Part shown: piece after piece, positions 293 through 14,290 of the stretch
How the letters are laid out: each line of letters begins with the position of its first letter
Numbering within the stretch: the stretch's first letter is position 1
DNA from: a virus
Lineage: Duplodnaviria; Heunggongvirae; Uroviricota; Caudoviricetes
Strand: one strand, 5' to 3'
IMG/VR virus record: IMGVR_UViG_2778261163_000002
Coordinates: 1-14,290 of that record
Length of the DNA stretch: 14,290 bases
The notes under the pieces: generated by a model
The model's database searches: none
What the model saw: only the letters and a program-made list of their open reading frames with translations
What the model was told of the DNA's origin: nothing
Made by a program: the position numbers and the translations under genes

Positions 293-321
293 ACTGATTC
301 CTCGCGGTGTTGCTTCGCTTA

Positions 322-450: not shown

Positions 451-451
451 A

Positions 452-607: not shown

Positions 608-779
608 GCTGACCTCATTTCCCCTTAACGCCGGGGTAGCGGAACAAAAACCTGCTGCATAGTTATTAAAGTTGAACCCTGCCGTCATGTTCTTACGCCT
701 CGGGCTGGCTACTTAACCCCTGACCACTGCCTGGTAACTCGAAGTATTGCCCTGCATTCTGTGGGGCGGGGTGGGTGGC

Positions 780-830
780 AGGTATATAATGTACTTTGCG
801 TTCATTGTTGTAAAGTACTTTTAGTACATT
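780..830 (-). promoter_or_regulatory. candidate promoter/operator for the ydfA-like operon
   Basis: On the minus strand: -35-like TTTACA (complement of 810..815), 17-bp spacer, -10-like CATTAT (complement of 786..791); AATGTACT at 788..795 overlaps the -10 and its reverse complement AGTACATT sits at 823..830. Confidence 0.3.
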
Positions 831-904
831 CTGTGTGTAAAAAAATGAGATGGGATAAAGTGAAGCACAAACCCGGAGGAAGGCGCTACCGGATTTATGC
901 TGGT

Positions 905-1324
905 TTAAGAGGCTTTTTGTTTTTTCTTTCGTGCTAACTCTTCGTAAATTGCATTGTACTTCTGTTTTTTCTCTTCAAGAGTTTTTAAAAGTTCATCTGT
1001 CTCACTGTCAGGGAGCTCGTCCAGAAGGTCAATGATGATTTTTTGTCTTGGATTTAACTCCTGATAGAAACGTACCTGTCCACTTTCTTCTGTATCCTCT
1101 CCCAAAAGATAGGTTGGTGTTGTTCCTATTAGTGTTGCTAATTCCCTTAATTTCTCCCGGCGAGGAATTGTTTCGCCATTAAACCATTTGCTAACCGCTT
1201 TTGGTGTTAATTTCATTCGACGGGCAATTTCTGCCTGCCTTCCATGTTGTTCATAACCAGCGTTTTCACAGGCTAGCGCAAGCCTACTGGCGAACTCTTT
1301 ACGCGCTTTATCTTCATGAACCAT
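905..1324 (-). CDS. XRE-family HTH prophage repressor, DicA/CI-like
   Basis: 139-aa ORF with an N-terminal HTH-like segment (QAEIARRMKLTPKAVSKWFNGE) and an acidic C-terminal region; divergent from the cro-like gene; no Shine-Dalgarno before the ATG, so possibly leaderless. Confidence 0.75.
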   Translation of the reverse strand: MVHEDKARKEFASRLALACENAGYEQHGRQAEIARRMKLTPKAVSKWFNGETIPRREKLRELATLIGTTPTYLLGEDTEESGQVRFYQELNPRQKIIIDLLDELPDSETDELLKTLEEKKQKYNAIYEELARKKKQKAS

Positions 1325-1403
1325 AAGTTCAATGATATTCGCTCTTGAATGTACTGTCAGTTCTGTTATAGCATGTACTCAAAGTTCACATTGTGAGGGT
1401 GAT
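1325..1403. promoter_or_regulatory. immunity-region divergent promoter/operator interval
   Basis: 79-bp gap between divergent repressor and cro-like genes; ATGTACT repeated at 1348..1355 and 1373..1379; inverted repeat TTCAA-N12-TTGAA at about 1328..1349; near-palindrome TCACATTGTGA at 1386..1396. Confidence 0.5.
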
Positions 1404-1658
1404 ATGAACCAGAAAACACTTGAAGATGTAATCAAAACTGTTCGCGTTGCTGTTGTGGCCGACGTTTGTGGTGTCAGCCAAAGAGCAATCTATAAATGGA
1501 TGGATAACGGAAAATTGCCTCGCACAGAATATACCGGCGAAACAAATTACGCTGAAAAAATCGCTCTTGCATCAAACGGATTATTTTCTGCCGATGCAAT
1601 TTTAACTATTGGCAGGAATAAAACTACTACGAAAAAGCTGATGGGAGTTGATTCATGA
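1404..1658 (+). CDS. Cro-like small DNA-binding protein (84 aa)
   Basis: In-frame ATG at 1404 preceded by GAGGGTG with 5-nt spacing; HTH-like segment (VADVCGVSQRAIYKWMDNG); divergent from the repressor; stop overlaps the next start (ATGA). Confidence 0.6.
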   Translation: MNQKTLEDVIKTVRVAVVADVCGVSQRAIYKWMDNGKLPRTEYTGETNYAEKIALASNGLFSADAILTIGRNKTTTKKLMGVDS

Positions 1659-2080
1659 AAATCAAGCATGAACACATCCGCATGGCGATGAATGCCTGGG
1701 CGCATCCGGACGGCGAAAAAGTACCGGCTGCGAAAATTACCAAAGCGTATTTCGAGCTGGGAATGACGTTCCCGGAACTGTATGACGACAGCCATCCGGA
1801 AGCCTTGGCTCGCAATACCCAGAAAATTTTCCGCTGGGTAGAGAAAGACACCCCTGATGCAGTTGAAAAAATTCAGGCGTTGTTACCAGCGATCGAAAAG
1901 GCAATGCCACCTTTGCTGGTGGCCAGAATGCGCAGCCACAGTTCAGCTTATTTTCGGGAGCTGGTGGAGACGCGGGAGCGATTGGTGAGAGACGCTGATG
2001 ATTTTGTCGCAGTGGCAATCGCCGGTTTCAATCAGATGAACCGTGGTGGCCCGGCAGGAAATGCTGTGGCAGTACATTGA
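1655..2080 (+). CDS. YdaT-family protein (CII-like regulator, formerly called a putative toxin)
   Basis: 141-aa ORF starting MKIKHEHI, recalled as the characteristic YdaT N-terminus; position immediately after cro matches racR-ydaS-ydaT synteny. Confidence 0.6.
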   Translation: MKIKHEHIRMAMNAWAHPDGEKVPAAKITKAYFELGMTFPELYDDSHPEALARNTQKIFRWVEKDTPDAVEKIQALLPAIEKAMPPLLVARMRSHSSAYFRELVETRERLVRDADDFVAVAIAGFNQMNRGGPAGNAVAVH

Positions 2081-2151
2081 CTGACAATAGCCATATCGAA
2101 TCGCTTCCGGCAACTCGTGAGTAAAAAGATTCGGTATCAGAAGAGGTGAGT

Positions 2152-3222
2152 ATGGCTAACGCCTGGCTCAGATTATGGCATGACATGCCAAATGACCCTA
2201 AGTGGCGAACAATTGCCAGGGTGTCAGGGCAGCCAATTGCAACAGTGATGGCAGTGTATATCCACCTCCTGGTGAGCGCGTCACGAAATGTCACGCGAGG
2301 TCACATTGATGTCACGACAGAAGATTTGGCAAGTGCGCTCGACGTGACAGAAGAGGTAATTGATTCAATTTTGCAGACGATGCAGGGGCGGGTACTTGAT
2401 GGTGATTTAATCACTGGATGGGAAAAACGCCAGGTGCTTAAAGAGGACAACGGCAATATTTCGCAAACCGCAAAATCTCCTGCAGAGCGCAAGAGGGCGC
2501 AGCGAGAGAGGGAAAGAAAGCAGGAACAAAATGGCGATTGTCACGGCGCGTCACGAAATGTCACGCACATGTCACGACGAGTCACGACAGATAAAGATAC
2601 AGATAAAGATACAGATCAAGAAGATCAAAACACTATGGTCCATGGCGTAAAAAACGCCACGAACCAGGCAGGGGATGTTCAGACCGTCAATCCTGGTCAG
2701 CCAGCAGGCACGACACCGGAAGCCGATTCAGCGTATGCGCTGAAAGCCGATTCGGGCGCTGTGCAGCAGGTGATGACCGCAAGGCCGGAGCAATCACACC
2801 AACTGCAGCAGCCTGAAGCCGATTCCGCCATTCAGCGGGAAGCCGATCGGGTAGTCCCGGAAAACACCGGGCAGCCTGTGGGACGAGTAGATTATCCGGA
2901 TGTGTTCGAACAGGTCTGGCGGGAATACCCGTTGCGTGCTGGGGCAAACCCGAAGAAATCCGCTTTCAGTGCCTGGAAGGCCAGATTACGCGAGGGGGTG
3001 CCACCAGAGGCCATGCTGGATGGTGTGAGGCGTTACGCAAGATACCTGGCGGCTACCGGGAAAACGGGAACGGAATTTGTTCAGCGAGCGACGACGTTTT
3101 TTGGACCGGACCGGAATTTTGAGAACCCTTGGTTGCTCCCGGTAAGCGGCACGAACAACCAGCGTTGTGTGAATCATATTTCTGAACCGGATAACGAAAT
3201 TCCGCCGGGCTTCAGGGGGTAA
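2152..3222 (+). CDS. phage replication initiator / replisome organizer, DUF1376 YdaU-like N-terminal domain
   Basis: ATG at 2152 preceded by AAGAGGTG; N-terminus WLRLWHDMPNDPKWRTIA resembles DUF1376 (recalled); two GTCACG iteron arrays and an acidic DKDTDKDTD linker lie inside the ORF, as with the lambda O gene and its origin. Confidence 0.65.
   Translation: MANAWLRLWHDMPNDPKWRTIARVSGQPIATVMAVYIHLLVSASRNVTRGHIDVTTEDLASALDVTEEVIDSILQTMQGRVLDGDLITGWEKRQVLKEDNGNISQTAKSPAERKRAQRERERKQEQNGDCHGASRNVTHMSRRVTTDKDTDKDTDQEDQNTMVHGVKNATNQAGDVQTVNPGQPAGTTPEADSAYALKADSGAVQQVMTARPEQSHQLQQPEADSAIQREADRVVPENTGQPVGRVDYPDVFEQVWREYPLRAGANPKKSAFSAWKARLREGVPPEAMLDGVRRYARYLAATGKTGTEFVQRATTFFGPDRNFENPWLLPVSGTNNQRCVNHISEPDNEIPPGFRG
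2291..2327. repeat. iteron array A: four direct GTCAC(G/A) repeats at 10/10/11-bp spacing
   Basis: GTCACG at 2291, 2301, 2322 and GTCACA at 2311; an inverted copy CGTGAC at 2354..2359. Confidence 0.7.
2540..2612. repeat. iteron array B (five GTCACG repeats at 10/10/11/10-bp spacing) plus adjacent 12-bp tandem repeat; candidate replication origin
   Basis: GTCACG at 2540, 2550, 2560, 2571, 2581; then AGATAAAGATAC x2 (2589..2612) forming an A-rich stretch; TCACGAAATGTCACG is shared exactly with array A. Confidence 0.7.
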
Positions 3223-3262
3223 GTGTTAATTTCTGGTCATGAGGTAATTTTCAGGAGGGCTT

Positions 3263-3688
3263 GTGGCAAAAGTATTTACACAAGAAGAGCGGGAAAAAAT
3301 TAAGAGGCAGGTTGTTGAACTCGTGCGCCTGAGCGGGCGCGAGACGTTACGACAACTGGAAGCGAAAACAGGTGCGACAAGATATCTGATGAGTGTTCTC
3401 GCCAGAGAGCTGGTTGCCAGTGGCGATGTATACAATTCTGGCTACGGGTTATTCCCGTCTGAACAGGCGCGTAAGGACTGGCAAAATGCCCGCAAAAAAC
3501 TCTCAAGGGCAAAGGTGAAGAAACCTGCAGTGGTTGATCCGGACCTTATCTGGTCGTTACCAGACGGCGAAATACGCCGCTACGACAGGCGCCTGAATAT
3601 AATCTGTCGCGAGTGCCGGAAGAGCGAAGCTATGCAGCGTGTACTGGCATTTTATCAAGGAAATGTTAGGTATTTTAGACGTTACTAG
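3263..3688 (+). CDS. hypothetical protein (141 aa), basic, unknown function
   Basis: GTG start at 3263 preceded by CAGGAGGG; protein-like composition; no family recognised from memory. Confidence 0.55.
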   Translation: MAKVFTQEEREKIKRQVVELVRLSGRETLRQLEAKTGATRYLMSVLARELVASGDVYNSGYGLFPSEQARKDWQNARKKLSRAKVKKPAVVDPDLIWSLPDGEIRRYDRRLNIICRECRKSEAMQRVLAFYQGNVRYFRRY

Positions 3689-3841
3689 ATTAAAGAGCAT
3701 TAGTTCAGATGTGAATTGACATTTTCATGGCGCAGGGTAGAGCCAGCGTGGTTGTCCGCTTTGCGTCAAAACCAGATATTACCAGATTTAGACATATATT
3801 CCCGATAGCCCTGCTCTGATGCTACACTCTGTGCTATTTTC

Positions 3842-4528
3842 ATGACCCCAATAAAAATATTTATGACTATTGCTGATTTCAAACGGCCTAAATTGGAGCT
3901 CCCAAACGGGGCAAACAAACTACTACTGCACTCTTGCTGTGCTCCATGTTCCGGTGAAGTGATGGAGGCGCTTCAGGCCTCGGGAATCGACTACACCATC
4001 TTTTTCTACAACCCGAACATTCATCCTCAGAAAGAGTATTTAATTCGTAAGGATGAAAATATTCGCTTTGCTGAACAACACGGCGTGCCGTTTATCGATG
4101 CTGATTACGACACCGACAACTGGTTTGAACGTGCCAAAGGAATGGAATGGGAGCCTGAGAGGGGGATCCGTTGTACCATGTGTTTTGACATGCGTTTTGA
4201 GCGGACAGCGTTGTACGCTGCTGAAAATGGTTTCAGTGTGATCAGCAGTTCACTGGGCATTTCACGCTGGAAAAATATGCAGCAGGTTAACGAGTGTGGG
4301 CGGCGAGCTGTTGCGCATTATCCGGGTATGGTGTACTGGGATTATAACTGGCGCAAGCAGGGCGGCTCGTCCCGTATGATTGAAATCAGCAAGCGCGAAA
4401 AATTCTATCAGCAGGAATATTGTGGCTGTGTGTATTCTCTGCGCGATACCAATCTACACCGCAAATCTCAGGGACGCCCTCTTATCAAAATTGGCCAACT
4501 CCACTACGGAAAAGAAGAGAAGGAGTGA
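3842..4528 (+). CDS. queH: epoxyqueuosine reductase QueH homolog (DUF208 family)
   Basis: 228-aa ORF with HSCCAPCS near the N-terminus, YNPNIHP, RCxxCF and a C-terminal YCGCVYS motif, recalled as hallmarks of the Fe-S, B12-independent QueH family; start could alternatively be the ATG at 3863. Confidence 0.7.
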
Positions 4529-4765
4529 TTTTATGGATCACCTTTCTGATTGATTTCATATTGGCGAGGTGACGTGAGTTAAGTAGAATGGCTGCGGGTG
4601 CTTGAGGCTATCTGTCTCAGGCATGAACACTGAAAGGCAGATAGAGAAAAGCCCCAGTTAACATTACGCGTCCGGCAAGACGCTTAACATTAATCTGAGG
4701 CTCAATCTATGAACGGCAAATCTAGGTTAGCCTCTTACGTGCCGAAAGGCAAGGAGAAGCAGGCT

Positions 4766-4921
4766 ATGAAGCAGCAAAAGGCGATGTTAATCGCCCTGAT
4801 CGTCATCTGTTTAACCGTCATTGTGACGGCACTGGTAACGAGGAAAGACCTCTGCGAGGTACGAATCCGAACCGGCCAGACGGAGGTCGCTGTCTTCACA
4901 GTCTACGAACCTGAGGAGTAA
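4766..4921 (+). CDS. hokD: Hok/Gef-family type I toxin, HokD (RelF)-like, 51 aa
   Basis: MKQQKAMLIALIVICLTVIVTALVTRKDLCEVRIRTGQTEVAVFTVYEPEE matches the recalled HokD sequence almost exactly; AAGGAG 9 nt upstream; the ORF continues in frame upstream to 4709, which is probably not biological. Confidence 0.8.
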   Translation: MKQQKAMLIALIVICLTVIVTALVTRKDLCEVRIRTGQTEVAVFTVYEPEE

Positions 4922-4991
4922 GAGACTTGGCGAGGGAGAAATCCCTCGCCGCCTCTGATGTGTCAGGCATCCTCAACGCACCCGCACTTAA

Positions 4992-5010
4992 CCCGCTTCG
5001 GCGTTTTTTC
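4992..5010 (+). terminator. rho-independent terminator after hok
   Basis: CCCGC-TTCG-GCG stem-loop followed by TTTTTT. Confidence 0.55.
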
Positions 5011-5064
5011 CGTTGATTAACTCTAGTTATTAGAGAACCGAACTTTTATTGATGGGGCAGGGAG

Positions 5065-5457
5065 ATGAAGAAACTTGTTTTAGTCGCAGGTGTAATGATT
5101 GCAACAGTAATGTTGGGAGGGTGTGCAGCAAAGGTCGATCCAGCGTTGAAAGCAGAAGCAATGAAGCCACTAACATGTAATGATGAAAAGCAATGTGACT
5201 TTTATTGGAAACGAGCGCAATTCTGGTTGGCTAATAATTCCTCATGGAAAATTCAAACGGCGACAGACACGCTAATTTCCACTTATAATCCCTCTCCAAA
5301 TAGTCCATTCCTCGCTTATCAAGTGAGTAAAATGCCAAATGAAGATGGATCCTCAAGAATTTTCATCAAGCCTTTTTGCGATAATATGTTTGGCTGTCAA
5401 CCAAACCCCTATCAGGCAGTTGTTTCCTTTAAAAACTTCGTTAAAACAGGGCAGTAG
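5065..5457 (+). CDS. putative lipoprotein (130 aa), four conserved-looking Cys, unknown function
   Basis: Signal peptide with lipobox LGG-C (MKKLVLVAGVMIATVMLGGC); GGGAG before the ATG; AT-rich codon usage compared with flanking genes; terminators on both sides. Confidence 0.7.
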   Translation: MKKLVLVAGVMIATVMLGGCAAKVDPALKAEAMKPLTCNDEKQCDFYWKRAQFWLANNSSWKIQTATDTLISTYNPSPNSPFLAYQVSKMPNEDGSSRIFIKPFCDNMFGCQPNPYQAVVSFKNFVKTGQ

Positions 5458-5655
5458 TGTATAGCTTGGACGATAAATTATTAGTGAAAACGCCGTAAAC
5501 CCTCACCCAATGTGGACTAAGCCTATCAAACATGACTGTGATGATTAGTCCGTAGTTGTTGCCTATGAAATCTGGATTGAGTCAGGGTTTAATCCAATAA
5601 TTATTCTATCGTTCCTTTACAAGTCCGGTATATTACTTTCAGTTTGTTTTAGCAT

Positions 5656-5681
5656 ACCCGCTTCGGCGGGTTTTGTTTTTT
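5656..5681 (+). terminator. rho-independent terminator
   Basis: CCCGC-TTCG-GCGGG stem-loop followed by TTTTGTTTTTT. Confidence 0.65.
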
Positions 5682-5753
5682 CCTGGCATTCTGGTTTACA
5701 ATTCGCACGCCAGCCTGAACAACTGGCACCTGCTGCGCCAGCAGAGACAACCG

Positions 5754-6032
5754 ATGGCGCACGATACCAAATTACACAATTCTAATGATTCTGCCGTCTT
5801 TGCCAGCAGGCGCGGACGGCGTTTTCACGTATTCAAATCAGACTGGTTCCAGCATCCTCCATGCACTGAAGAGCAGGCGGAATGGATAATTCAGTGTTAC
5901 CGCAGGCGCGGATACGAGGTTAAGAAAGCCCTCAGCCTCGATTATCGTCACTGGATAATCTATGTCAGGCTCCCTTATTCCGAACGCCCACCGCGCCCAT
6001 CCCGCACATACCAGCAACGGATCTGGAGGTAA
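5754..6032 (+). CDS. hypothetical small protein (92 aa from internal ATG), position equivalent to rem in Qin
   Basis: ORF 5673..6032; the upstream part overlaps the terminator, so an internal start is assumed; its stop TAA at 6030 overlaps the GGAGG of the next gene. Start and reality uncertain. Confidence 0.35.
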   Translation: MAHDTKLHNSNDSAVFASRRGRRFHVFKSDWFQHPPCTEEQAEWIIQCYRRRGYEVKKALSLDYRHWIIYVRLPYSERPPRPSRTYQQRIWR

Positions 6033-6033
6033 C

Positions 6034-7089
6034 GTGCGGATATTACTTCGACCTGTTCTGGTACCGGAACTTGGGCTGGTGGTCCTTAGGCCGGGCCGTG
6101 AATCCATGCAAGTATTTCATAACCCTCGAGTGCTGGTGGAGCCTGAACCGAAAAGCATGCGCGGTCTGCCGTCCGGAGTCGTCCCTGCCGTTCGCCAGCC
6201 GCTGGCGGAGGATAAATCATTACTGCCATTTTTCAGCGATGAGCGGGTGATTCGTGCTGCTGGCGGCGCTGGGGCACTGTCTGACTGGCTGTTGCGTCAT
6301 GTCAAATCCTGCCAGTGGCCTCATGGTGACTATCATCACAGTGAAATCGTCATACATCGTTACGGTACCGGCGCGATGGTGTTGTGCTGGCACTGCGACA
6401 ACCAGTTGCGTGACCAGACATCCGAATCACTCGGGCAACTTGCTCATCAAAACCTGTCAGCATGGATGATTGACGTCATACGCCATGCAATGAATGGCAC
6501 GCAGGAGCGGGAATTGTCGCTGGCTGAATTATCCTGGTGGGCGGTCTGCAATCAGGTGGCGGACGCGCTTCCGGAGGCAGTATTACGTCGTTCTCTGGGG
6601 TTACGTGCGGAAAAAATCCGCTCCTTGTACCGCGAAAGCGACATCGTACCGGGAGAGCAGACCGCCACCAGCATACTGAAGCAGCGCACAAAAAATCTTG
6701 CGCCGTTGCCTCATGCCCACCAGCAAAACCCGCCACAGGAAAAGACGGTGGTCAGCATTGCCGTTGATCCGGAGTCACCGGCTCAGTATCTCCAGCGCCA
6801 GAAACCACAACGGGAAGAGATGCCTGTATACACGCGTTGGGTAAAAACGCAGAAATGCATGACGTGCGGTAATCAGGCAGATGATCCGCATCACATCATT
6901 GGTCATGGACTGGGAGGGATGGGAACAAAGGCTGATGATTTGTTTGTTATTCCGCTGTGCCGTAAATGTCATAACGAACTGCACGCCGGGGTAAAAGATT
7001 TTGAAGAAAAACACGGCAGCCAGCTGTTGTTGCTGATTCGTTTTTTAATGCACGCGAGAAATTCGGGTGTCCTGAAGTGGAAAGCATGA
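6034..7089 (+). CDS. DUF968-family protein, YdfU-like, with C-terminal HNH-like Cys/His motif
   Basis: GTG at 6034 preceded by GGAGGT; C-terminus CMTCG...DDPHHIIGHGLGG...CRKCHNELH; the ORF is open upstream to 5962, so the start is uncertain; sits between hok and rusA/Q as in Qin. Confidence 0.65.
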   Translation: MRILLRPVLVPELGLVVLRPGRESMQVFHNPRVLVEPEPKSMRGLPSGVVPAVRQPLAEDKSLLPFFSDERVIRAAGGAGALSDWLLRHVKSCQWPHGDYHHSEIVIHRYGTGAMVLCWHCDNQLRDQTSESLGQLAHQNLSAWMIDVIRHAMNGTQERELSLAELSWWAVCNQVADALPEAVLRRSLGLRAEKIRSLYRESDIVPGEQTATSILKQRTKNLAPLPHAHQQNPPQEKTVVSIAVDPESPAQYLQRQKPQREEMPVYTRWVKTQKCMTCGNQADDPHHIIGHGLGGMGTKADDLFVIPLCRKCHNELHAGVKDFEEKHGSQLLLLIRFLMHARNSGVLKWKA

Positions 7090-7455
7090 ATGACTGAACG
7101 CATAGAATTTGTTTTGCCTTACCCGCCGACGGTGAATACCTACTGGCGACGTCATGGCAATACGTATTTCATCTCGGAGGCCGGAAAGCGTTATCGCCAT
7201 GATGTGGCGCTAATTGTTCGCCAGCAGCGGTTGAAATTAAACCTGTCCGGAAGGCTGGCGATAAAGATTATTGCAGAGCCACCGGATAAGCGCCGTCGTG
7301 ACCTGGACAATATCCTGAAAGCACCACTGGATGCGCTGACGCATGCCGGACTACTCATAGATGACGAGCAGTTTGATGAAATCAATATTGTGCGCGGTCA
7401 GCTCGTTCCTGGTGGGCGGCTGGGGATAAAAATCACAGAACTGGAGTGCGCATGA
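7090..7455 (+). CDS. rusA: RusA Holliday-junction resolvase
   Basis: 121-aa protein with the RRRDLDN motif and overall similarity to recalled RusA; typical nin-region position upstream of Q. Confidence 0.85.
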   Translation: MTERIEFVLPYPPTVNTYWRRHGNTYFISEAGKRYRHDVALIVRQQRLKLNLSGRLAIKIIAEPPDKRRRDLDNILKAPLDALTHAGLLIDDEQFDEINIVRGQLVPGGRLGIKITELECA

Positions 7456-8141
7456 ATAACCAGTATTTACAGTTTGTGCGTGAGCAGCTCATTATCGCCA
7501 CCGCTGATTTGAGTGGGGCAACAAAAGGTCAGCTTGAAGCCTGGCAGGAGAATGCCATGTTCGATACAGGGCGTTACAGGCGTAAAAAAATCCGGTACCG
7601 AGATGAAGTGACCGGAAAAATGATTACGCGGGATAATCCACCAATCCCGGGGAAACAATCGCTGGCGAAGGGGACGTCAATTCCTCTGGTCAGTCCGGTT
7701 GAGTTTTCGACATCATCGTGGCGGCGGGCTGTTCTGTCTCTTGAAGAACATCATAAAGCCTGGTTGTTGTGGTGTTACAGCGGGAGTATTTGTTGGGAAT
7801 ATCAGATCGCGATAACACAGTGGGCGTGGAATGAATTTAATACTCAATCCGGTACCAGAAAAATTGCAGGGAAAACGCAGGAACGCCTGAAAAAATTAAT
7901 CTGGCTGGCGGCGCAGGCATTAAAAGCAGAACTTTTTGGTGGGGAAGGTTATGAATACCAGGAGCTGGCATTACTGGCGGGAGTGACAACTAAAAACTGG
8001 TCCAAAACATTTACTCGTCACTGGGTTGCAATGAAACACATTTTTCACCGACTTGATAGTGAGGCTTTATTGTTTGTAATGAGAACACGTTCAAAACAAA
8101 AGGCGGCATTTTCAAAGCAAAGTGTTGCAAAAGTAGATTGA
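7452..8141 (+). CDS. late-gene antiterminator Q-like protein (QuuQ-type), 229 aa
   Basis: Start ATG overlaps the rusA stop (ATGA); located directly upstream of a promoter/terminator pair, the tRNAs and the lysis genes; no lambda-Q zinc-finger motif, so the call is mainly positional. Confidence 0.55.
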   Translation: MNNQYLQFVREQLIIATADLSGATKGQLEAWQENAMFDTGRYRRKKIRYRDEVTGKMITRDNPPIPGKQSLAKGTSIPLVSPVEFSTSSWRRAVLSLEEHHKAWLLWCYSGSICWEYQIAITQWAWNEFNTQSGTRKIAGKTQERLKKLIWLAAQALKAELFGGEGYEYQELALLAGVTTKNWSKTFTRHWVAMKHIFHRLDSEALLFVMRTRSKQKAAFSKQSVAKVD

Positions 8142-8153
8142 AAGGCATATATT
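8125..8153 (+). promoter_or_regulatory. pR'-like late promoter
   Basis: -35 TTGCAA (8125..8130), 17-bp spacer, -10 TATATT (8148..8153), overlapping the 3' end of the Q-like gene; a terminator lies about 55 nt downstream. Confidence 0.45.
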
Positions 8154-8204
8154 TCATGCAAATCTGATATTTTGCCGATTTTGTACGTGATGGCAAAAGC
8201 AAAC

Positions 8205-8230
8205 AAAACCCGCCCACAAGCGGGTTTTTT
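8205..8230 (+). terminator. tR'-like rho-independent terminator
   Basis: AAAACCCGC-CCACAA-GCGGGTTTT stem-loop followed by a T-run. Confidence 0.65.
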
Positions 8231-8297
8231 GTGCCACTTATCTCGGATAGACATGGTGAATGCGCTGGTGGAGGAGATAAGGGTGATTTTTGAATGC

Positions 8298-8326
8298 TTG
8301 CAACATTGATTTCGTAACGTTATTAT
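8298..8326 (+). promoter_or_regulatory. candidate sigma70 promoter for the tRNA cluster
   Basis: -35 TTGCAA (8298..8303), 17-bp spacer, -10 TATTAT (8321..8326); predicted start about 8333, just before the first tRNA at 8336. Confidence 0.5.
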
Positions 8327-8335
8327 CCTGCGCCC

Positions 8336-8411
8336 GGCCCTTTAGCTCAGTGGTGAGAGCGAGCGACTCATAATCGCCAGGTCGCTGGTTCAAATCCAGC
8401 AAGGGCCACCA
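8336..8411 (+). tRNA. tRNA with anticodon CAT, closest to tRNA-Ile2 (lysidine, ileX/ileZ-like); Met not excluded
   Basis: Cloverleaf folded by hand: acceptor GGCCCTT/AAGGGCC, D arm GCTC/GAGC, anticodon loop CTCATAA, T loop TTCAAAT, encoded CCA; close to recalled E. coli ileX. Confidence 0.8.
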
Positions 8412-8412
8412 G

Positions 8413-8489
8413 CCGCCACTAGCTCATCAGGAAAGAGCGTCAACCCTTTAAGTTGAGTGTGCGAGGTTCGAGTCCCCGATGGCGGTCCA
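8413..8489 (+). tRNA. tRNA-like gene with aberrant features, anticodon loop CCTTTAA (UUU, Lys-like); possible pseudo-tRNA
   Basis: D arm GCTC/GAGC, anticodon stem TCAAC/GTTGA, T loop TTCGAGT, encoded CCA; but C at position 33 instead of the invariant U, a mismatch in the T stem and a mismatch at acceptor pair 7-66. Confidence 0.5.
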
Positions 8490-8491
8490 GT

Positions 8492-8567
<76 letters not shown>

Positions 8568-8570
8568 TAT

Positions 8571-8645
<75 letters not shown>

Positions 8646-8651
8646 GTTAGA

Positions 8652-8697
8652 GTCTTTCAGTCTGCGATGATGGGAAATCCCGGAGTGACTGAAAGAC
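8652..8697. repeat. perfect 11-bp inverted repeat (GTCTTTCAGTC / GACTGAAAGAC) with 24-nt loop
   Basis: Arms at 8652..8662 and 8687..8697 are exact reverse complements; located immediately after the tRNA-Gly gene. Confidence 0.7.
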
Positions 8698-8705
8698 GTT
8701 TAAGT

Positions 8706-8776
8706 TATGAATGATCGCTTTTTTTTGCAAAATTGCTGTGCAGAAATACTAACCTTCGGGCAGGCGATCATTCATA
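8706..8776. repeat. perfect 13-bp inverted repeat (TATGAATGATCGC / GCGATCATTCATA) flanking a 45-bp core
   Basis: Arms at 8706..8718 and 8764..8776; a T9 run follows the left arm. Confidence 0.7.
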
Positions 8777-8852
8777 AGCACTCTGCTTTTATTCCGATTA
8801 ACTGTGGGTGGTTTGTTGGATAGAGTGCTTTCCTTACTGTATATATTGTTTC

Positions 8853-8877
8853 GCCCGCTTTTGCGGGCTTTTCTTTT
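8853..8877 (+). terminator. rho-independent terminator upstream of the holin gene
   Basis: GCCCGC-TTTT-GCGGGC stem-loop followed by TTTTCTTTT. Confidence 0.65.
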
Positions 8878-8937
8878 CAAATCCCTTTCATTTCTCAGTG
8901 TAAAACTACGCCATCCGTTATTTGCGGAGGTGAGGCT

Positions 8938-9153
8938 ATGAAATCCATGGACAAAATTTCAACGGGCATTGCCTATGGCACCTCCGCAGGCAGTGCTGGC
9001 TACTGGTTTTTACAGTGGCTTGATCAGGTCAGTCCGTCACAGTGGGCTGCGATTGGTGTGCTGGGGAGTCTGGTTCTGGGCTTCCTGACTTATCTGACAA
9101 ATCTGTACTTCAAAATCAGAGAAGACAAGCGTAAGGCTGCACGGGGAGAGTAA
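8938..9153 (+). CDS. class II holin / pinholin, phage-21 S-like, dual-start motif MKSM
   Basis: 71-aa protein matching the recalled S21 pinholin; GGAGGTGAGG before the ATG; Met1/Met4 dual start typical of antiholin/holin pairs. Confidence 0.85.
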
Positions 9154-9157
9154 TTCA

Positions 9158-9508
9158 ATGACTCAAAACTATGAACTGATTGTGAAAGGGATCCGCAATT
9201 TTGAGAATAAAGTTACGGTAACTTTAGCGTTACGGGACAAAAAACGCTTTGACGGTGAAATTTTTGACCTGGACATCTCGCTGGACCGTGTTGAAGGTGC
9301 CGCGCTGGAGTTTTATGAGGCAGCAGCCAGAATGAGCATCAGACAGGTCTTCCTGGATGTTGCTGCCGGGTTATGTGAAGGGGATGAGCAGTCGCCGGAA
9401 AAGCGCCCCGTAATTTTAGAGGCGCAGAATGTATGGATAACCTACAAAGGAAAGCTACCGGGAAGAATTACTGGTTCTCTGAAGACTCCTCCGGAATCAC
9501 AACCTTAA
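9158..9508 (+). CDS. hypothetical protein (116 aa) inserted between holin and endolysin
   Basis: ATG 4 nt after the holin stop, GGAGAG 7 nt upstream; no TM segment or signal peptide evident; no family recognised. Confidence 0.55.
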   Translation: MTQNYELIVKGIRNFENKVTVTLALRDKKRFDGEIFDLDISLDRVEGAALEFYEAAARMSIRQVFLDVAAGLCEGDEQSPEKRPVILEAQNVWITYKGKLPGRITGSLKTPPESQP

Positions 9509-9571
9509 GTCACTGACCGGAACAGATAAACCTGTCCGTGGGCAGAAACCGATAAATCCTGATAAATATCC

Positions 9572-10105
9572 ATGAACGCAAAAATCAGATACGGCCTGTC
9601 GGCTGCCGTTCTGGCACTGATTGCCGTCGGTGCGCCCGCGCCTGATATTCTCGACCAGTTTCTGGATGAAAAAGAAGGTAACCACACAACGGCATACCGC
9701 GATGGGTCCGGCATCTGGACCATCTGTCGGGGTGCCACGATGGTGGATGGAAAACCCGTTTTTCCCGGTATGAAACTGTCGAAGGAAAAATGCGACCAGG
9801 TCAACGCCATTGAGCGTGATAAGGCGCTGGCATGGGTGGAGCGCAATATTAAAGTACCACTGACCGAACCACAAAAAGCGGGTATAGCGTCATTCTGTCC
9901 CTATAACATTGGCCCCGGTAAGTGTTTCCCGTCGACGTTTTATAAGCGGCTGAATGCCGGTGATCGTAAGGGCGCATGCGAGGCGATTCGCTGGTGGATA
10001 AAAGATGGTGGGCGCGATTGCCGCATACGTTCAAATAACTGCTATGGACAGGTTATTCGTCGTGACCAGGAAAGCGCATTAGCCTGTTGGGGGATAGAGC
10101 AGTGA
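9572..10105 (+). CDS. SAR endolysin (phage lysozyme, R21-like)
   Basis: N-terminal signal-anchor-release segment [18 protein letters not shown]; overall similarity to recalled phage-21 R; stop overlaps the Rz start. Confidence 0.8.
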
Positions 10106-10563
10106 GCAGAGTCGCCGCGATTATTTATGCTTTGGTTATCTGCATCATCGTCTGCCTGTCGTGGGCGGTCAATCATTACCGTGATAACGCCATCGCCTAC
10201 AAAGAACAGCGTGATAAAAAAGTCAGTGAGCTGAAGCAGGCGATCGCCACCATCGCTGACATGCAACAGCGTCAGCGTGATGTTGCTGCACTCGATGCAA
10301 AGTACTCGAGAGAATTAGCCAATGCGAAAGCTGAAAATGAAACTCTGCGCGCTGATGTTGCCGCTGGTCGTCGTCGGTTGCACATCAAAGCAGTCTGTCA
10401 GTCAGTGCGTGAAGCCACCACCGCCTCCGGCGTGGATAATGCAACCAGCCCCCGACTGGCAGACACCGCTGAACGGGATTATTTCACCCTCAGAGAGAGG
10501 CTGATCACTATGCAAAAACAACTGGAAGGAACCCAGAAGTATATTAATGAGCAGTGCAGATAG
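10102..10563 (+). CDS. Rz: Rz i-spanin
   Basis: GTG start giving MSRVAAII..., near-identical to recalled lambda Rz; N-terminal TM segment; C-terminus ...QKYINEQCR. Confidence 0.85.
10322..10504 (+). CDS. Rz1: Rz1 o-spanin lipoprotein, embedded in Rz in the +1 frame
   Basis: 60-aa ORF with lipobox VVGC and a PPPPP run, near-identical to recalled lambda Rz1. Confidence 0.85.
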
Positions 10564-10594
10564 AGCTGCCCATATCGATGGGCAACTCATGCAA

Positions 10595-10888
10595 TTATTG
10601 TGAGCAATACACACGCGCTTCCAGTGGAGTATAAATGCCTAAAGTAATAAAACCGAGAAATCCATTTACGAATGTTTGCTGGGTTTCTGTTTTAACAACA
10701 TTTTCTGCGCCGCCACAAATTTTGGCTGCATCAACAGTTTTCTCCTGTCCAATTCCCGAAACGAAGAAATGATGGGTGATGGTTTCCTTTGGTGTTACTG
10801 CTGTCGGTTTGTTTCCAACAGTAAACGTCTGTTGAGCACATCCTGTAATAAGCATTGCCAGAGCGGCAGAAAACAACATTTTTTTCAT
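10595..10888 (-). CDS. bor: Bor lipoprotein (serum-resistance, Iss family)
   Basis: 97 aa from MKKML...ITGCAQQTFTV...LEARVYCSQ, near-identical to recalled lambda Bor; start taken at the internal ATG (10888), preceded by AGGA. Confidence 0.85.
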   Translation of the reverse strand: MKKMLFSAALAMLITGCAQQTFTVGNKPTAVTPKETITHHFFVSGIGQEKTVDAAKICGGAENVVKTETQQTFVNGFLGFITLGIYTPLEARVYCSQ

Positions 10889-11068
10889 CTTATTATCCTG
10901 CATTGTTAAAAACGGCAGAATCCTATGTGACAACAATTAAACGATAGTTAAATGGATTGATGAAAATTAAAACTATATAGGTGGATGCTCAGCCTATTGG
11001 AGGTAGTCAGGATTTGAATGTCAGTCTGTTGTCGGCATTCTGGCAATGCAATTTGGATAAAGCGGGGA

Positions 11069-11191
11069 TTAAAAAGATAGAGGCGAGCCGGTCAGGTAGA
11101 AATGAATCAGGCTCAAAGTGAAGCGGAAAAGGTCTGTGGCACAAGCTGATGCAGCCATAATTACAGCCTGATGATTTGTGGAATGAAACAT
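11069..11191 (-). CDS. small ORF, 40 aa (MFHSTNHQAVIMAASACATDLFRFTLSLIHFYLTGSPLSF), hypothetical
   Basis: Hand-translated; AAGGAGGT Shine-Dalgarno 6 nt upstream of the ATG on the minus strand; below the ORF-track cutoff. Confidence 0.35.
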   Translation of the reverse strand: MFHSTNHQAVIMAASACATDLFRFTLSLIHFYLTGSPLSF

Positions 11192-11413
11192 GTTGAACCT
11201 CCTTAATTGATGTTATTCGAGTGATGAAGGCATTCTGTCCTTCTATAGTGTCCAGTAAATCAAACAGGAAACTTGTCCAACGTGTTGGACAAGCCTCTCC
11301 ATTAGTGAGTTGTATTGATCACAACTCTACAAAGAATTCATTACTGGGTAGATGAAAATAGTTTCACTATGAATGGAGGAGGCTATGTCGGTGGCTTCTT
11401 CATTGGAGTACAT

Positions 11414-11764
11414 ATGCCCCCACGAATCCCACGCGCCTGCCGTAAGCGTGGATGTGCAGGTACAACCACAGACAGTTCTGGTTACTGCGATAAACATCGT
11501 GGCGAAGGATGGGTACAGCATCAACGCGGACTGAGCCGCCACCAGCGTGGCTATGGCTCGAAATGGGATGCCATACGTGCGCGCATACTGAAGCGTGATA
11601 ATCATCTGTGTCAGAACTGCCTGCGCAATGGGAGAGCCGTTGAAGCCAGAACTGTGGACCACATCATTCCGAAAGCTCATGGTGGCACGGATGCAGACAG
11701 TAACCTGCAGAGTCTGTGCTGGCCCTGTCATAAAGCAAAAACAGCGCGCGAACGCATCAATTGA
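11414..11764 (+). CDS. HNH endonuclease (packaging-associated)
   Basis: Cys/His motif CQNCL...VDHIIPKAHGG...NLQSLCWPCHKAK; GGAG 5 nt before the ATG at 11414; the ORF is open upstream to 11315 (alternative ATG at 11369); located just upstream of the terminase genes as in HK97-like phages. Confidence 0.75.
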   Translation: MPPRIPRACRKRGCAGTTTDSSGYCDKHRGEGWVQHQRGLSRHQRGYGSKWDAIRARILKRDNHLCQNCLRNGRAVEARTVDHIIPKAHGGTDADSNLQSLCWPCHKAKTARERIN

Positions 11765-11911
11765 TAACAGTTCCCATCTGTAGGGGAGGGGCAGGTCAAA
11801 TCTCTGCAACCCTGGCTGCTCAGTACCGCCGCCTGACCTTTCCTCGCATCGCCGCAGGTTCGAAAACTTTTTTTTGGAATGTGATTAAATGATTGATAGG
11901 TAAAACCGATT

Positions 11912-12394
11912 ATGTCTGGACCCCCGAAAACCCCGCCACGCCTGCATTTGATACGAGGTAACCCCTCAAAGCGGCCAGTTAAAGACTCCAAAAAAACCGC
12001 TAAAAAGGATGAAAAAGGTCTCCCTAAAATTCCGCAACATTTAGGGGCGCAGGGGAAGTACTGGTTCAGGCGAATGGCGGAAGAGCTGAATGCGGAAGGG
12101 ATCATTTCTCAGCTCGATGCACGTGCGCTCGAGTTACTGGTGGAAGCCTACACCGAATACCGGCATCACTGCGAAATACTCGATGTTGAGGGTTATACCT
12201 ACCGCACGGAAACGCAGAATGGCGATGTGCTGATCAAGGCACACCCGGCTGCTGCGATGAAGGCTGATGCCTGGAAGCGGATTCGGGCGATGCTTGCAGA
12301 GTTTGGTATGTCACCGGCAAGCCGGGCGAAAGTAAATACCGCCGGACCGGATGATGTTGATCCGCTGGCAGAGCTTTTAAAAGCGAGAGACTGA
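11912..12394 (+). CDS. terminase small subunit (P27-family-like)
   Basis: 160-aa basic protein directly upstream of and overlapping the large terminase gene (TGATG); recalled similarity to P27-family small terminases. Confidence 0.7.
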   Translation: MSGPPKTPPRLHLIRGNPSKRPVKDSKKTAKKDEKGLPKIPQHLGAQGKYWFRRMAEELNAEGIISQLDARALELLVEAYTEYRHHCEILDVEGYTYRTETQNGDVLIKAHPAAAMKADAWKRIRAMLAEFGMSPASRAKVNTAGPDDVDPLAELLKARD

Positions 12395-14151
12395 TGGCAA
12401 AAGTGGCTGACGGGATCCGCTACGCCGAACGTGTTGTTGCAGGAGAAATTGTTGCTGGCGAATTTGTCCGTCTGGCCTGCCAGCGTTTTCTTGATGATCT
12501 GAAGTACGGCGAAGAGCGGGGGATTTATTTCAGTGAACCTCGTGCACAGCACATCCTTAATTTCTACAAATTTGTACCCCATGTGAAAGGGGCGCTGGCA
12601 GGTCAGCCCATTGAGTTGATGGACTGGCATGTGTTTATCCTCATTAATATTTTTGGTTTTGTCATTCCGCTGGTGAATGAAGAAACCGGGGAAGTTGTCA
12701 TGCGCAGCGATGGCAGTGGACGCCCGGTGATGGTGCGCCGGTTCCGGACAGCATACAACGAAGTTGCCCGTAAAAACGCAAAATCAACCCTGTCATCGGG
12801 TATCGGTCTGTATATGACGGGGGCAGATGGTGAAGGCGGGGCTGAGGTGTATTCAGCCGCAACCACGCGTGACCAGGCCAGAATTGTGTTTGAAGACGCC
12901 AAAAATATGGTCAGAAAAGCCCGGTCGACACTCGGGCGGTTGTTTGATTTCAACAAGCTGGCGATTTACCAGGAGCAGAGCGCATCAAAATTTGAACCGC
13001 TTTCCTCGGATGCAAACAACCTGGACGGTCTGAACATCCACTGCGCCATTATTGATGAGCTGCATGCTCATAAAACCCGTGACGTGTGGGACGTTCTGGA
13101 AACGGCAACCGGTGCCCGTCTGCAGTCTCTGTTATTTGGCATCACCACGGCTGGCTTTAACAAGGAAGGGATTTGCTACGAGCAGCGCGATTACGCCATT
13201 AAGGTATTGCGAGGCTATAACAGCGACGTGGAGGGCGCGGTAAAAGACGACTCCTACTTTGCGATCATTTACACGCTCGATGAGGGAGATGATCCGTTTG
13301 ATGAAACGGTCTGGCAGAAAGCGAATCCTGGCCTGGGCATCTGTAAACGCTGGGATGATCTGCGTCGTCTGGCGAAAAAAGCGAAGGAGCAGGTCTCTGC
13401 GCGGGTGAATTTTTTTACCAAACACATGAATGTGTGGGTCACTGCCGAATCTGCCTGGATGGATATGATTAAGTGGGAGAAGTGCGAATACATTGCTCCA
13501 CAACATGAGCTGAAAACATATCCCATGTGGGTCGGCGTAGACCTTGCTCATAAGATTGATATCTGTGCGGCGGCAAAACTCTGGCGAACCGATAACGGAC
13601 ATGTTCATGCTGATTTTAAATTCTGGCTTCCGGAAGGACGGCTGGAGCGATGCTCGCGGCAGCAGGCAGAACTTTACCGGAAGTGGGCGGAGATGGATAA
13701 GCTCATCCTGACGGATGGTGATGTTATCGATCATGCTCAGATAAAAAGTGACTTACTGGAATGGATTGGCGGTGAAAACCTCAGGGAACTGGGATTTGAC
13801 CCGTGGAGCGCAATGCAGTTCAGCCTGGCACTGGCTGAAGAAGGGATACCGCTGGTGGAGGTTCCGCAGACGGTCCGCAATCTGTCAGAGGCCATGAAGG
13901 AAACGGAATCACTGGTTTATGCCGGGCGTTTCCATCACAGCAATCATCCGGTCATGAACTGGATGATGTCTAACGTTACGGTAAAACCGGACAAAAACGA
14001 CAACATCTTCCCGAATAAATCCACGCCTGAAGCCAAAATCGACGGCCCTGTTGCGCTTTTTACGGCCATGAGCCGCTTTCTGGTAAATGGCGGGGGCGTG
14101 AATGACTTTCTGTCCACGCTTGATCCTGATGAGGACCTGTTAATTCTGTGA
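12394..14151 (+). CDS. terminase large subunit (HK97-like family)
   Basis: 585-aa ORF coupled to the small subunit; size and position typical of large terminases; Walker-like and nuclease motifs not individually verified. Confidence 0.8.
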   Translation: MAKVADGIRYAERVVAGEIVAGEFVRLACQRFLDDLKYGEERGIYFSEPRAQHILNFYKFVPHVKGALAGQPIELMDWHVFILINIFGFVIPLVNEETGEVVMRSDGSGRPVMVRRFRTAYNEVARKNAKSTLSSGIGLYMTGADGEGGAEVYSAATTRDQARIVFEDAKNMVRKARSTLGRLFDFNKLAIYQEQSASKFEPLSSDANNLDGLNIHCAIIDELHAHKTRDVWDVLETATGARLQSLLFGITTAGFNKEGICYEQRDYAIKVLRGYNSDVEGAVKDDSYFAIIYTLDEGDDPFDETVWQKANPGLGICKRWDDLRRLAKKAKEQVSARVNFFTKHMNVWVTAESAWMDMIKWEKCEYIAPQHELKTYPMWVGVDLAHKIDICAAAKLWRTDNGHVHADFKFWLPEGRLERCSRQQAELYRKWAEMDKLILTDGDVIDHAQIKSDLLEWIGGENLRELGFDPWSAMQFSLALAEEGIPLVEVPQTVRNLSEAMKETESLVYAGRFHHSNHPVMNWMMSNVTVKPDKNDNIFPNKSTPEAKIDGPVALFTAMSRFLVNGGGVNDFLSTLDPDEDLLIL

Positions 14152-14290
14152 AACAGCTTATTACCTAGATTCTACGTCAGTACTTCAAAAAGCATAATCA
14201 AAGCCTTGATAAATATGCATTCCTTCGAAATTCAGCTTTCACCCATTGGGTGAAAGAAAAGTGCTCAAAAATATGTTAAATTATCAGCTT

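Follow-up and report, generated by a model that had tools for sequence, protein, structure and literature searches.

A lysine-type tRNA gene downstream of Q

The stretch analysed here, referred to as the window, comprises positions 1-14,290 of the IMG/VR virus record IMGVR_UViG_2778261163_000002 (Caudoviricetes) and represents the late-regulatory region of an Escherichia coli lambdoid prophage, in which the late antiterminator gene Q is followed by a cassette of tRNA genes, the second of which, a lysine-type gene with anticodon UUU, is the subject of this work. ARAGORN calls four adjoining plus-strand tRNAs, with anticodons CAU (8336-8411), UUU (8413-8489), UGU (8492-8567), and UCC (8571-8645), and names the second tRNA-Lys (anticodon ttt) at exactly 8413-8489 (+).

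Written as DNA and divided by structural element, the Lys-like gene reads CCGCCAC-TA-GCTC-ATCAGGAAA-GAGC-G-TCAAC-CCTTTAA-GTTGA-GTGTG-CGAGG-TTCGAGT-CCCCG-ATGGCGG-T-CCA. The acceptor stem pairs CCGCCAC with AUGGCGG, such that C7 (8419) faces A66 (8479), and the T stem pairs CGAGG with CCCCG, such that A51 (8464) faces C63 (8476). The anticodon loop is C32-C33-U34-U35-U36-A37-A38, with C33 at 8446 in place of the near-invariant U33, a substitution present in every copy of the lineage, and the anticodon at 8447-8449, while the discriminator U73 (8486) is followed by an encoded CCA (8487-8489). A by-hand check of other anticodon-stem registers that would put U at position 33 or give a different anticodon found none that pairs. 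An earlier reading made from the sequence alone had described the cloverleaf, the UUU anticodon, C33, the T-stem and 7-66 mismatches, and the encoded CCA, and the sequence, ARAGORN, and Rfam bear out every one of these details. That sequence-only reading did not mention U73, which constitutes a fourth departure from E. coli tRNA-Lys, whose verified host sequence carries A73. The other conserved bases, namely U8, A14, G18G19, G53-C61, U54 U55 C56, A58, and a purine at 37, are kept in both the sequence and the Rfam alignment.

The covariance-model scoring that had been proposed as a check returned a match to Rfam RF00005 at 8413-8486 with 37.7 bits (E = 5.5e-5), two non-standard pairs being flagged in the alignment, which lies above the gathering score of 29 bits, as does the major allele of the lineage at 44.4 bits. 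The Lys-like gene is nevertheless a clear outlier of the cassette, because the other three tRNAs score 72.5, 73.8, and 64.9 bits in cassette order. It is a genuine tRNA gene and not a chance match.

Descent from the argN scaffold by an anticodon switch

Many E. coli chromosomes contain the 501 bases around the cassette at 99.8% identity, and in them the Prokaryotic Genome Annotation Pipeline (PGAP) names the genes tRNA-Ile, tRNA-Lys, tRNA-Thr, and tRNA-Gly. Shiga toxin (Stx) phages carry the same ileZ followed by argN and argO, and their ileZ-argN block aligns to the window at ~90%, while the 77-nt gene alone is 83-88% identical to argN; statements on the Stx-phage cluster are drawn from GenBank annotation and general knowledge. 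The gene at 8413-8489 (+) is homologous to argN, lies directly 3' of ileZ and downstream of Q, and occupies a slot found in 216 loci. Its anticodon is UUU and not the arginine-type UCG, A20 being kept and C35 lost. The Lys-like gene is therefore a sister lineage of argN (tRNA-Arg UCG) and not argN itself, its anticodon having switched from UCG to UUU, a kinship that the sequence-only reading had missed, together with the compensatory changes and the canonical U33 sister described below.

With the ileZ-argN-argO clusters of phage 933W and Stx2 phages, the Lys-like gene shares the slot, the 77-nt scaffold, C1-G72, U73, A20, and the encoded CCA, and its T arm matches that of Stx2-phage argN base for base, A51·C63 included. 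In contrast, the argN loop is CUUCGAA, compared with CCUUUAA in the Lys-like tRNA (U33C, C35U, G36U), and pairs 7-66, 27-43, and 30-40 have been replaced compensatorily. Relative to Stx2 argN specifically, the changes comprise the loop, pair 30-40 (G-C to A-U), G43 to A, and pair 7-66. The clusters also diverge downstream, since argN is followed by argO, whereas the Lys-like gene is mostly followed by captured thrU and glyT. Among GTDB species representatives, the argN scaffold is confined to Escherichia and Shigella.

Covariation was assessed in 36 distinct family members, with pairing partners slid by 1 to 3 columns as a control. Standard pairs fill 96.4% of the stem cells, as against 29-53% for the slid partners. 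Four pairs (4-69, 7-66, 27-43, and 30-40) changed on both sides, and three of them separate the Lys and argN clades: from argN to Lys, 7-66 goes from U-A to C-G, 27-43 from C-G to U-A, and 30-40 from G-C to A-U. The sequence-only reading had suggested looking in relatives for such compensatory changes, and these both-sided replacements indicate that the Lys lineage diverged as a working tRNA.

The defects of the window copy have separate histories. The C7·A66 mismatch (G66A), not seen in 5,426 complete E. coli genomes, is a private single-nucleotide polymorphism (SNP), or possibly a sequencing error, since every other Lys-type copy examined has C7-G66 and canonical argN has U7-A66. A51·C63 recurs in Stx2-phage argN, while most argN alleles and the U33 sister have G51-C63 or G51-U63. 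C33 is fixed across the whole lineage (hereafter Lys-C33), with no exception found in ~773 genomes; in IMG/VR and in Joint Genome Institute (JGI) metagenomes, no copy on the Lys-C33 anticodon stem departs from C33-U34-U35-U36, while position 32 does vary, in three contigs. Among 77-nt alleles still scored as tRNAs, the window copy is the weakest; it is a private variant, with slightly more damage, of a common allele. The decay first put forward has a parallel in the many clearly dead alleles of the slot, but the three defects do not form one process, being instead a private SNP, an argN inheritance, and a fixed C33.

A rare sister with U33 reads CCGTCAC-TA-GCTC-ATCAGGAAA-GAGC-A-TCAAC-CTTTTAT-GTTGA-GAGTG-CGGGG-TTCGAGT-CCCCG-GTGACGG-T-CCA and has a perfect T stem, a compensated U4-A69 pair, 53.2 bits in Rfam, and a PGAP annotation as tRNA-Lys, being found in ~20 genomes and one IMG/VR contig. 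The bacterial determinant for N6-threonylcarbamoyladenosine at position 37 (t6A37) is 36-UAA-38, and TsaBD makes no base-specific contact to U33 (PMC13276492). This determinant is present in the Lys-like tRNA of the window and lacking in the U33 sister because its position 38 is U (PMC13276492). Variants of the U33 sister have an 8-nt loop (CUUUUUAU), carry G54, or have lost CCA. The 8-nt-loop CUUUUUAU alleles lie at 401-478 of loci L231, L232, and L233 (E. coli PG20180057, M18, and A39), mostly from mouse-associated strains, and PGAP still names two of the three tRNA-Lys. The loop of the verified host tRNA-Lys, CUUUUAA, occurs in no allele of either Lys lineage.

Distribution and allele classes of the slot

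IMG/VR was scanned with a pattern in which the anticodon loop was left free, which is biased towards the Lys type, and with a second search anchored on the ileZ 3' end, in which the target gene was unconstrained. The Lys-like gene occupies the same slot in more than 100 IMG/VR prophage contigs. Among 216 slots, 78 hold an otherwise intact Lys-C33 gene, 15 a Lys-C33 gene with U8C (plus C11U, and mostly also C4U), 15 a Lys-C33 gene with a 1-nt D-stem deletion (the type of the O157/O55 PPompW prophage), 3 a Lys type whose anticodon arm is deleted, and 1 the Lys-U33 gene; argN (UCG) in many alleles accounts for 70, a rearranged allele unrecognised by Rfam for 28, UCU forms for 4, and 2 are of other kinds or too short to classify. 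By best match, ~773 of 5,426 complete E. coli genomes (~14%) carry the Lys-C33 type and 1,396 the argN type. The C33 allele is ~40 times commoner than its canonical U33 sister (~773 against ~20 of the 5,426 genomes), and its commonest form, carried for example by E. coli 165 (NZ_CP020509) and phage vB_EcoS-689R5 (ON470583), is annotated tRNA-Lys by PGAP. The exact allele of the window is absent from the 5,426 complete genomes, the closest match being 98.7% identical with one mismatch. A fixed C33 in a tRNA of ~14% of E. coli genomes is unusual.

Two other occupants of the slot stand apart. The rearranged allele of the 28 loci (L133 at ~2716-2819; L138, L142) combines argN acceptor ends with a rearranged middle, GAGCAGACGACACGATAACAGGGTTGTTGGTGCGGGGGCGGGTCCCCG, and may represent a dead gene or an element of another kind. 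In L140, L164, and L205, the position after ileZ is taken by an argN/argO fusion tRNA with anticodon UCU, whose 5' half is argN and 3' half argO, which points to deletion by recombination between adjoining paralogous tRNA genes.

Constraint on the Lys-like gene

Across 77 Lys-C33 loci, nucleotide diversity is 0.23-0.26 in the mosaic flanks, while the four tRNAs hardly vary, with 0.013 in the Lys-like gene, 0.010 in the Thr gene, and 0.014 in the Gly gene. In these loci, a broken stem pair in the Lys-like gene occurs in the window copy only, and the Thr gene shows three broken copies and two indels; for the Gly gene, this comparison uses haplotype counts only. The remaining stem substitutions of the Lys-like gene are all C-to-U opposite G and keep a G·U pair. 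Pair-breaking stem variants are singletons, while pair-preserving ones reach up to 14-19 loci. A neutral-versus-selected test on the stem substitutions (6 pair-preserving against 3 pair-breaking) was not significant and is confounded by a C-to-T strand bias. By its diversity and stem damage, the Lys-like gene is no less constrained than its neighbours; because the lineage is young and tightly linked, this falls short of proving selection.

Charging and codon supply

Lysyl-tRNA synthetase (LysRS) reportedly reads U34-U35-U36 as its major identity element, with a smaller share from A73, and arginyl-tRNA synthetase (ArgRS) is said to need A20 and C35, both results being attributed to Tamura et al. 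in 1992. The Lys-like gene has TTT at 8447-8449, and on this basis the UUU anticodon should make its RNA a LysRS substrate, weakened by U73. Replacements of U33 in yeast tRNA-Phe and in suppressor tRNAs reportedly lower function without abolishing it (attributed to Bare et al., 1983, and Dix et al., 1986).

The open reading frames (ORFs) of the window are rich in the host-rare codons AUA, ACA, and GGA/GGG, matching the other tRNAs of the cassette, and also in CGA/CGG and AGA/AGG, the codons served by argN and argO where related cassettes carry them. tRNA-Lys(UUU), the only Lys isoacceptor of the host, is encoded there by a median of 6 genes. Codon supplementation fits the other cassette tRNAs and does not fit Lys(UUU).

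Nuclease determinants and known phage tRNAs

tRNA-Lys(UUU) is the most often attacked tRNA in E. coli phage conflicts. PrrC cleaves it 3' of U33 (PMC2610378), and the PARIS effector AriB, whose three targets are the Lys, Thr, and Asn tRNAs, cuts it at C40|A41 and needs U39, A41, and U16, cleavage being abolished by U39A and impaired by A41C and U16C (PMC12409363). P2-OLD cuts tRNA-Lys(UUU) once, its main target being tRNA-Thr(UGU) (PMC12445682). The Lys-like tRNA has the same anticodon as the host tRNA-Lys(UUU), which is both the PrrC target and the prime AriB target, and by sequence comparison it differs at all three tested AriB determinants, with G39, U40, U41, and C16 against U39, C40, A41, and U16 in the host. 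Both P2-OLD CNG motifs found in argN are gone from the Lys-like tRNA through the 30-40 change. C33, which lies on the 5' side of the PrrC scissile 33|34 bond, is the sole loop difference from host tRNA-Lys; no literature data were found on PrrC requiring U at position 33.

A separate observation concerns Stx-phage argN (loci L002, L126, and others), which has a paired CNG motif, CAG/CUG, at tRNA positions 28-30 and 40-42 and is, unlike the Lys-type allele, a predicted P2-OLD substrate by the CNG cleavage signature (PMC12445682).

By standing in for the host tRNA, phage tRNA-Lys variants restore infection in the face of PARIS and PrrC170 (PMC11464382, PMC11555353). A close parallel is the tRNA-Lys(UUU) of T5 (PMC11464382, PMC12409363), which likewise combines the host UUU anticodon with departures from the host at 39, 41, and 16 and escapes PARIS/AriB, an escape that for the Lys-like tRNA is predicted from its bases only. 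Virulent T5 carries 24 tRNAs, and its tRNA-Lys has A39, C41, and C16, whereas the present gene belongs to a temperate lambdoid phage and places G39, U40, U41, and C16 on an Arg-type scaffold that also has C33, U73, and a T-stem mismatch. In the PrrC170 rescue (PMC11555353) and the hypothesis of anticodon-loop mutations (PMC10264068), an altered-loop phage tRNA-Lys is likewise supposed to replace host tRNA-Lys cut 5' of the wobble base; in the Lys-like tRNA, the altered base C33 lies directly at the PrrC bond, and no change at position 33 is reported in either of these papers. The P2-OLD-resistant phage tRNA-Thr(UGU) (PMC12445682) comes from a lambdoid conflict, P2-lambda interference, in which resistant phage tRNAs replace host ones, but there the main target is tRNA-Thr(UGU), and the Thr(UGU) of the window, being identical to that of the host, should be sensitive. 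Other lambdoid phages have Asn(GUU) and/or Thr(UGU) at the same place after Q, Asn being unexplained by codon bias (PMC3636060); together with Lys(UUU), these two make up the AriB target set.

A candidate nuclease-insensitive spare tRNA-Lys

The best single explanation, in which our confidence stays somewhat below one half because decay is abundant in the same slot, is that the gene provides a nuclease-insensitive spare tRNA-Lys, a phage-encoded and possibly defence-evading tRNA of a known kind, here on an argN scaffold. In this proposal, whose expression, charging, nuclease resistance, and benefit we infer, the cassette would be transcribed from its own promoter-like element and as part of the late transcript, a 77-nt tRNA already bearing CCA would be freed by RNase P and 3' processing, and LysRS would charge it through UUU as the main identity element, U35 taking away arginine identity. 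The tRNA would read AAA and AAG, probably less well than host tRNA-Lys owing to C33, A51·C63, and U73. Nucleases that hit host tRNA-Lys(UUU) should not recognise it because its body is unrelated to the host tRNA (G39, U40, U41, and C16 in the case of PARIS/AriB), PrrC-type evasion could come from C33 beside the scissile 33|34 bond, and lysine codons would stay readable because the phage tRNA would replace the cleaved host tRNA. The counter-defence role proposed by the sequence-only reading thus agrees with an existing category (T5, PrrC170 rescue; PMC11464382, PMC12409363, PMC11555353) and with the altered AriB determinants, while the decoy form in which it was put finds no support.

That C33 is itself adaptive, protecting the 33|34 bond or distorting the U-turn that PrrC-type nucleases need while still decoding AAA and AAG well enough, with a scaffold unlike that of the host by which PARIS/AriB is evaded too, is a narrower claim that we consider unlikely. 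Under it, the sister alleles with an 8-nt loop or U38 would be further products of one anticodon-loop arms race, and it would imply a broadly nuclease-proof lysine tRNA in ~14% of E. coli genomes.

In favour of the spare tRNA-Lys count its bases at the AriB determinants, the lost P2-OLD motifs, C33 beside the PrrC cut, a Lys supply that codon bias leaves unaccounted for, the compensatory pair changes, the frozen anticodon loop, conservation on a par with the neighbouring genes, the prevalence of C33 over the U33 sister, the absence of the host loop from both Lys lineages, the UAA t6A determinant, and the AriB-target tRNAs that other lambdoid phages have after Q. Several observations weigh against a working spare tRNA. 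Nearly all tRNAs have U33, which matters for the anticodon U-turn, and the LysRS discriminator is A73, not U73. A51·C63 weakens the T stem: the minimum-energy fold of the C33 alleles in silico is not a cloverleaf, and A51G reversion alone brings the cloverleaf back as the predicted minimum-energy fold, C33U being without effect; folding is given little weight as a quality test, because neither the verified host tRNA-Lys nor canonical argN folds into the exact cloverleaf either. Ancestry in the argN scaffold accounts for the differences from host tRNA-Lys, which need not be selected. The cassette is young, and its recent expansion, together with tight linkage to the ileZ and Thr genes across spacers of 1 and 2 nt, could have produced the frozen loop and low diversity without selection. 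The Rfam scores fall in a series that resembles decay, from canonical argN (56 bits) through Lys-U33 (53.2 bits), the major Lys-C33 allele (44.4 bits), Stx2 argN (43 bits), and the window allele (37.7 bits) to the U8C, D-stem-deletion, and rearranged alleles, which give no hit at E ≤ 1. Further lesions occur in 33/111 Lys-C33-type copies of the IMG/VR sample (~30%) and in ~40% of those in complete genomes, the latter figure being inflated by the heavily sequenced O157 clone. PGAP leaves Lys-C33 alleles that Rfam does not detect unannotated, and the slot also holds the anticodon-arm-deleted alleles and the unrecognisable allele of 28 loci. The neighbouring Thr(UGU) is host-identical and not a resistant variant, hence presumably sensitive, and host thrU gave little protection from P2-OLD (PMC12445682).

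Many of these points are shared by the closest alternative, which we regard as a serious possibility of somewhat less than even probability: a decaying or effectively neutral relic, in which a once-working Lys(UUU) derivative of argN was hit by U33C and G51A and persists wedged between selected tRNAs. The U33 allele would then show its earlier look, the cassette would spread by recombination, and the window copy with G66A would be one step further down. The graded scores ending in undetectable alleles speak for such a history, as do the lesions in 33/111 copies (D-stem deletion, U8C, or anticodon-arm deletion), the 96.1% and 94.8% alleles that PGAP leaves unannotated, the dead alleles common in the slot (the odd allele of 28 loci, the fusions), and the damage in the U33 lineage as well (8-nt loop, G54, CCA loss); spacers of 1-2 nt ease hitch-hiking with the neighbours, and the pair-preserving stem changes, all C-to-T on one strand, could stem from mutational bias. 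A relic accords less well with loop positions 33-38 that are invariant while 32 varies, with stem-breaking variants that remain singletons beside pair-preserving ones in 14-19 loci, with a variability that does not exceed that of the host-identical Thr and Gly genes, with a C33 allele far more widespread than the canonical one, and with the generally reported reduction, rather than abolition, of function by U33 replacements.

The comparison with known tRNA pseudogenes and degenerate prophage tRNAs is likewise divided. The Lys-like gene resembles them in its low covariance score, its lost near-invariant base, its stem mismatches, and its relatives with frank deletions, but the major allele lies above the thresholds of Rfam and tRNAscan/PGAP, has lost no other invariant base, and evolves compensatorily. 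Uncompensated loss is seen in many slot alleles and in G66A, while the major allele has a frozen loop and mostly pair-preserving changes, its divergence being too small to support a rate test. If the gene is decaying, the lesson is one of annotation, as hundreds of RefSeq genomes say tRNA-Lys while close alleles are left unannotated.

An ordinary supply tRNA for late expression, with C33 and A51·C63 as tolerated quirks devoid of defence meaning, seems improbable to us. Lysine codons are more frequent in the window ORFs (AAA 41.6 plus AAG 19.3 per 1000) than in E. coli genes (~44 per 1000 in the K-12 codon table), the other cassette tRNAs fit codon supplementation, and a location within the late transcript agrees with how the Stx-phage ileZ-argN-argO cluster is classically interpreted. 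Against the median of 6 host tRNA-Lys(UUU) genes, however, a weakened extra copy adds little; exact host copies were captured for Thr and Gly, yet Lys is on a foreign scaffold, and the host-type loop is found in no allele.

Two further possibilities have very little probability. In the first, suggested in the sequence-only reading, the RNA would be a non-translational decoy that binds a tRNA-Lys nuclease uncut or soaks up cleavage, shielding host tRNA-Lys; its UUU anticodon and most of its loop equal the host target, and C33 at the PrrC scissile bond makes an uncleavable substrate analogue conceivable. The AriB determinants are missing, however, so target-like binding is not expected, and the compensated full cloverleaf, encoded CCA, and UAA t6A determinant fit a translating tRNA. 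In the P2-OLD case, moreover, the resistant phage tRNA replaced the cleaved host tRNA and did not stop its depletion, hence was no competitive inhibitor, and studied phage tRNAs likewise replace the host tRNA and do not protect it (PMC12445682).

The second, altered decoding, in which C33 or the 8-nt loop of the sisters would shift reading (A-run frameshifting, misreading), is hardly probable: the CUUUUUAU sisters occur in several genomes as PGAP-named tRNA-Lys, and 8-nt anticodon loops are the classical +1 frameshift-suppressor form, but the window loop has the normal 7 nt, the 8-nt form is rare and lies a single T-run slippage away, and no programmed frameshift site at an A-run was seen, none having been sought.

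Two broader schemes were set aside. For self-immunity, in which a prophage-borne tRNA nuclease would need a resistant tRNA, Pfam and PADLOC found no defence nuclease among the window ORFs, giving only helix-turn-helix (HTH) regulators, YdaT, DUF977, QueH, DUF968/HNH, Q, and a terminase-associated HNH. The idea that all four tRNAs form an anti-PARIS set is weakened by a Thr(UGU) identical to that of the host: being a captured host gene, it retains the U36AAUC|A41 site of AriB as well as the CNG motifs of P2-OLD.

Should the spare tRNA-Lys prove functional, temperate lambdoid prophages, beyond large virulent phages such as T5, would carry nuclease-evading tRNAs, and a natural elongator tRNA would work with a base other than U33. 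It would also explain why a tRNA for well-supplied Lys codons stands among rare-codon tRNAs after Q in about one-seventh of E. coli genomes, and lysogens might blunt tRNA-Lys-directed abortive infection (PARIS, PrrC), to their own benefit or to that of the prophage once induced.

Cassette and surrounding prophage region

The cassette opens with the ileZ-like tRNA (8336-8411, +; anticodon CAU), which ends 1 nt 5' of the Lys-like gene, is identical to Stx-phage ileZ, and is named tRNA-Ile (lysidine type) by PGAP. The tRNA-Thr(UGU) gene (8492-8567, +) is 100% identical to host thrU and the tRNA-Gly(UCC) gene (8571-8645, +) to host glyT, both scoring with Rfam as given above; they are joined by a 3-nt spacer, the tyrU of the host thrU-tyrU-glyT-thrT operon being missing between them. 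These two are captured host tRNA genes and a clean case of phage capture.

A consensus scan finds a promoter-like element at 8298-8335 (+), with TTGCAA, a 17-nt spacer, TATTAT, and a GC-rich discriminator, CCTGCGCCC, abutting ileZ. Of 213 related loci, 80-99% conserve these ~40 nt, as against 20-60% for sequence farther upstream, and the cassette probably has its own stable-RNA-type promoter besides being read by Q-modified polymerase. The Q gene (7446-8141, +; Pfam Phage_antiter_Q, E = 2.4e-91) is followed at 8205-8232 (+) by a hairpin with a T-run, evident in the sequence and a terminator scan, that resembles lambda tR'. By analogy with the tR' of lambda and Stx phages, this hairpin would put the cassette in the Q-antiterminated late transcript. 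Between the cassette and the holin gene (8938-9153) lies a terminator-like hairpin, GCCCGC-TTTT-GCGGGC plus a T-run (8853-8878, +), which is not a constant part of the cassette, because its exact form is found in only 27/230 loci.

The 5' part of the window runs from an HTH repressor-like gene through YdaT, DUF977, QueH, and hok/sok to DUF968, RusA, and Q; after Q come the tR'-like hairpin, the four tRNAs, holin, lysozyme, Rz, HNH, and terminase. QueH, an epoxyqueuosine reductase-type gene at 3842-4528 (+; PF02677, E = 1.1e-65) just upstream of hok/sok, specifies a queuosine-tRNA modification enzyme and thus a second tRNA-related function on the prophage, Q34 tRNAs being targets of colicin E5-type nucleases. 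The hok/sok-type toxin-antitoxin module (4596-4921, +) comprises an Rfam sok match (4596-4771; 111.9 bits) overlapped by an ORF of 70 aa (4709-4921).

From the Gly tRNA to holin, two sizeable inverted repeats free of Rfam matches (GTCTTTCAGTC...GACTGAAAGAC and ATGAATGATCGC...GCGATCATTCAT) lie at 8646-8790 (+). In several related prophages, though not in the window, the STnc100 small RNA (RF02076, up to 161 bits) is found in tandem just downstream of the tRNA cassette, with copies at 3121-3798 of L130, 3203-4318 of L228, 8044-8233 of L126, and 3592-3782 of L133.

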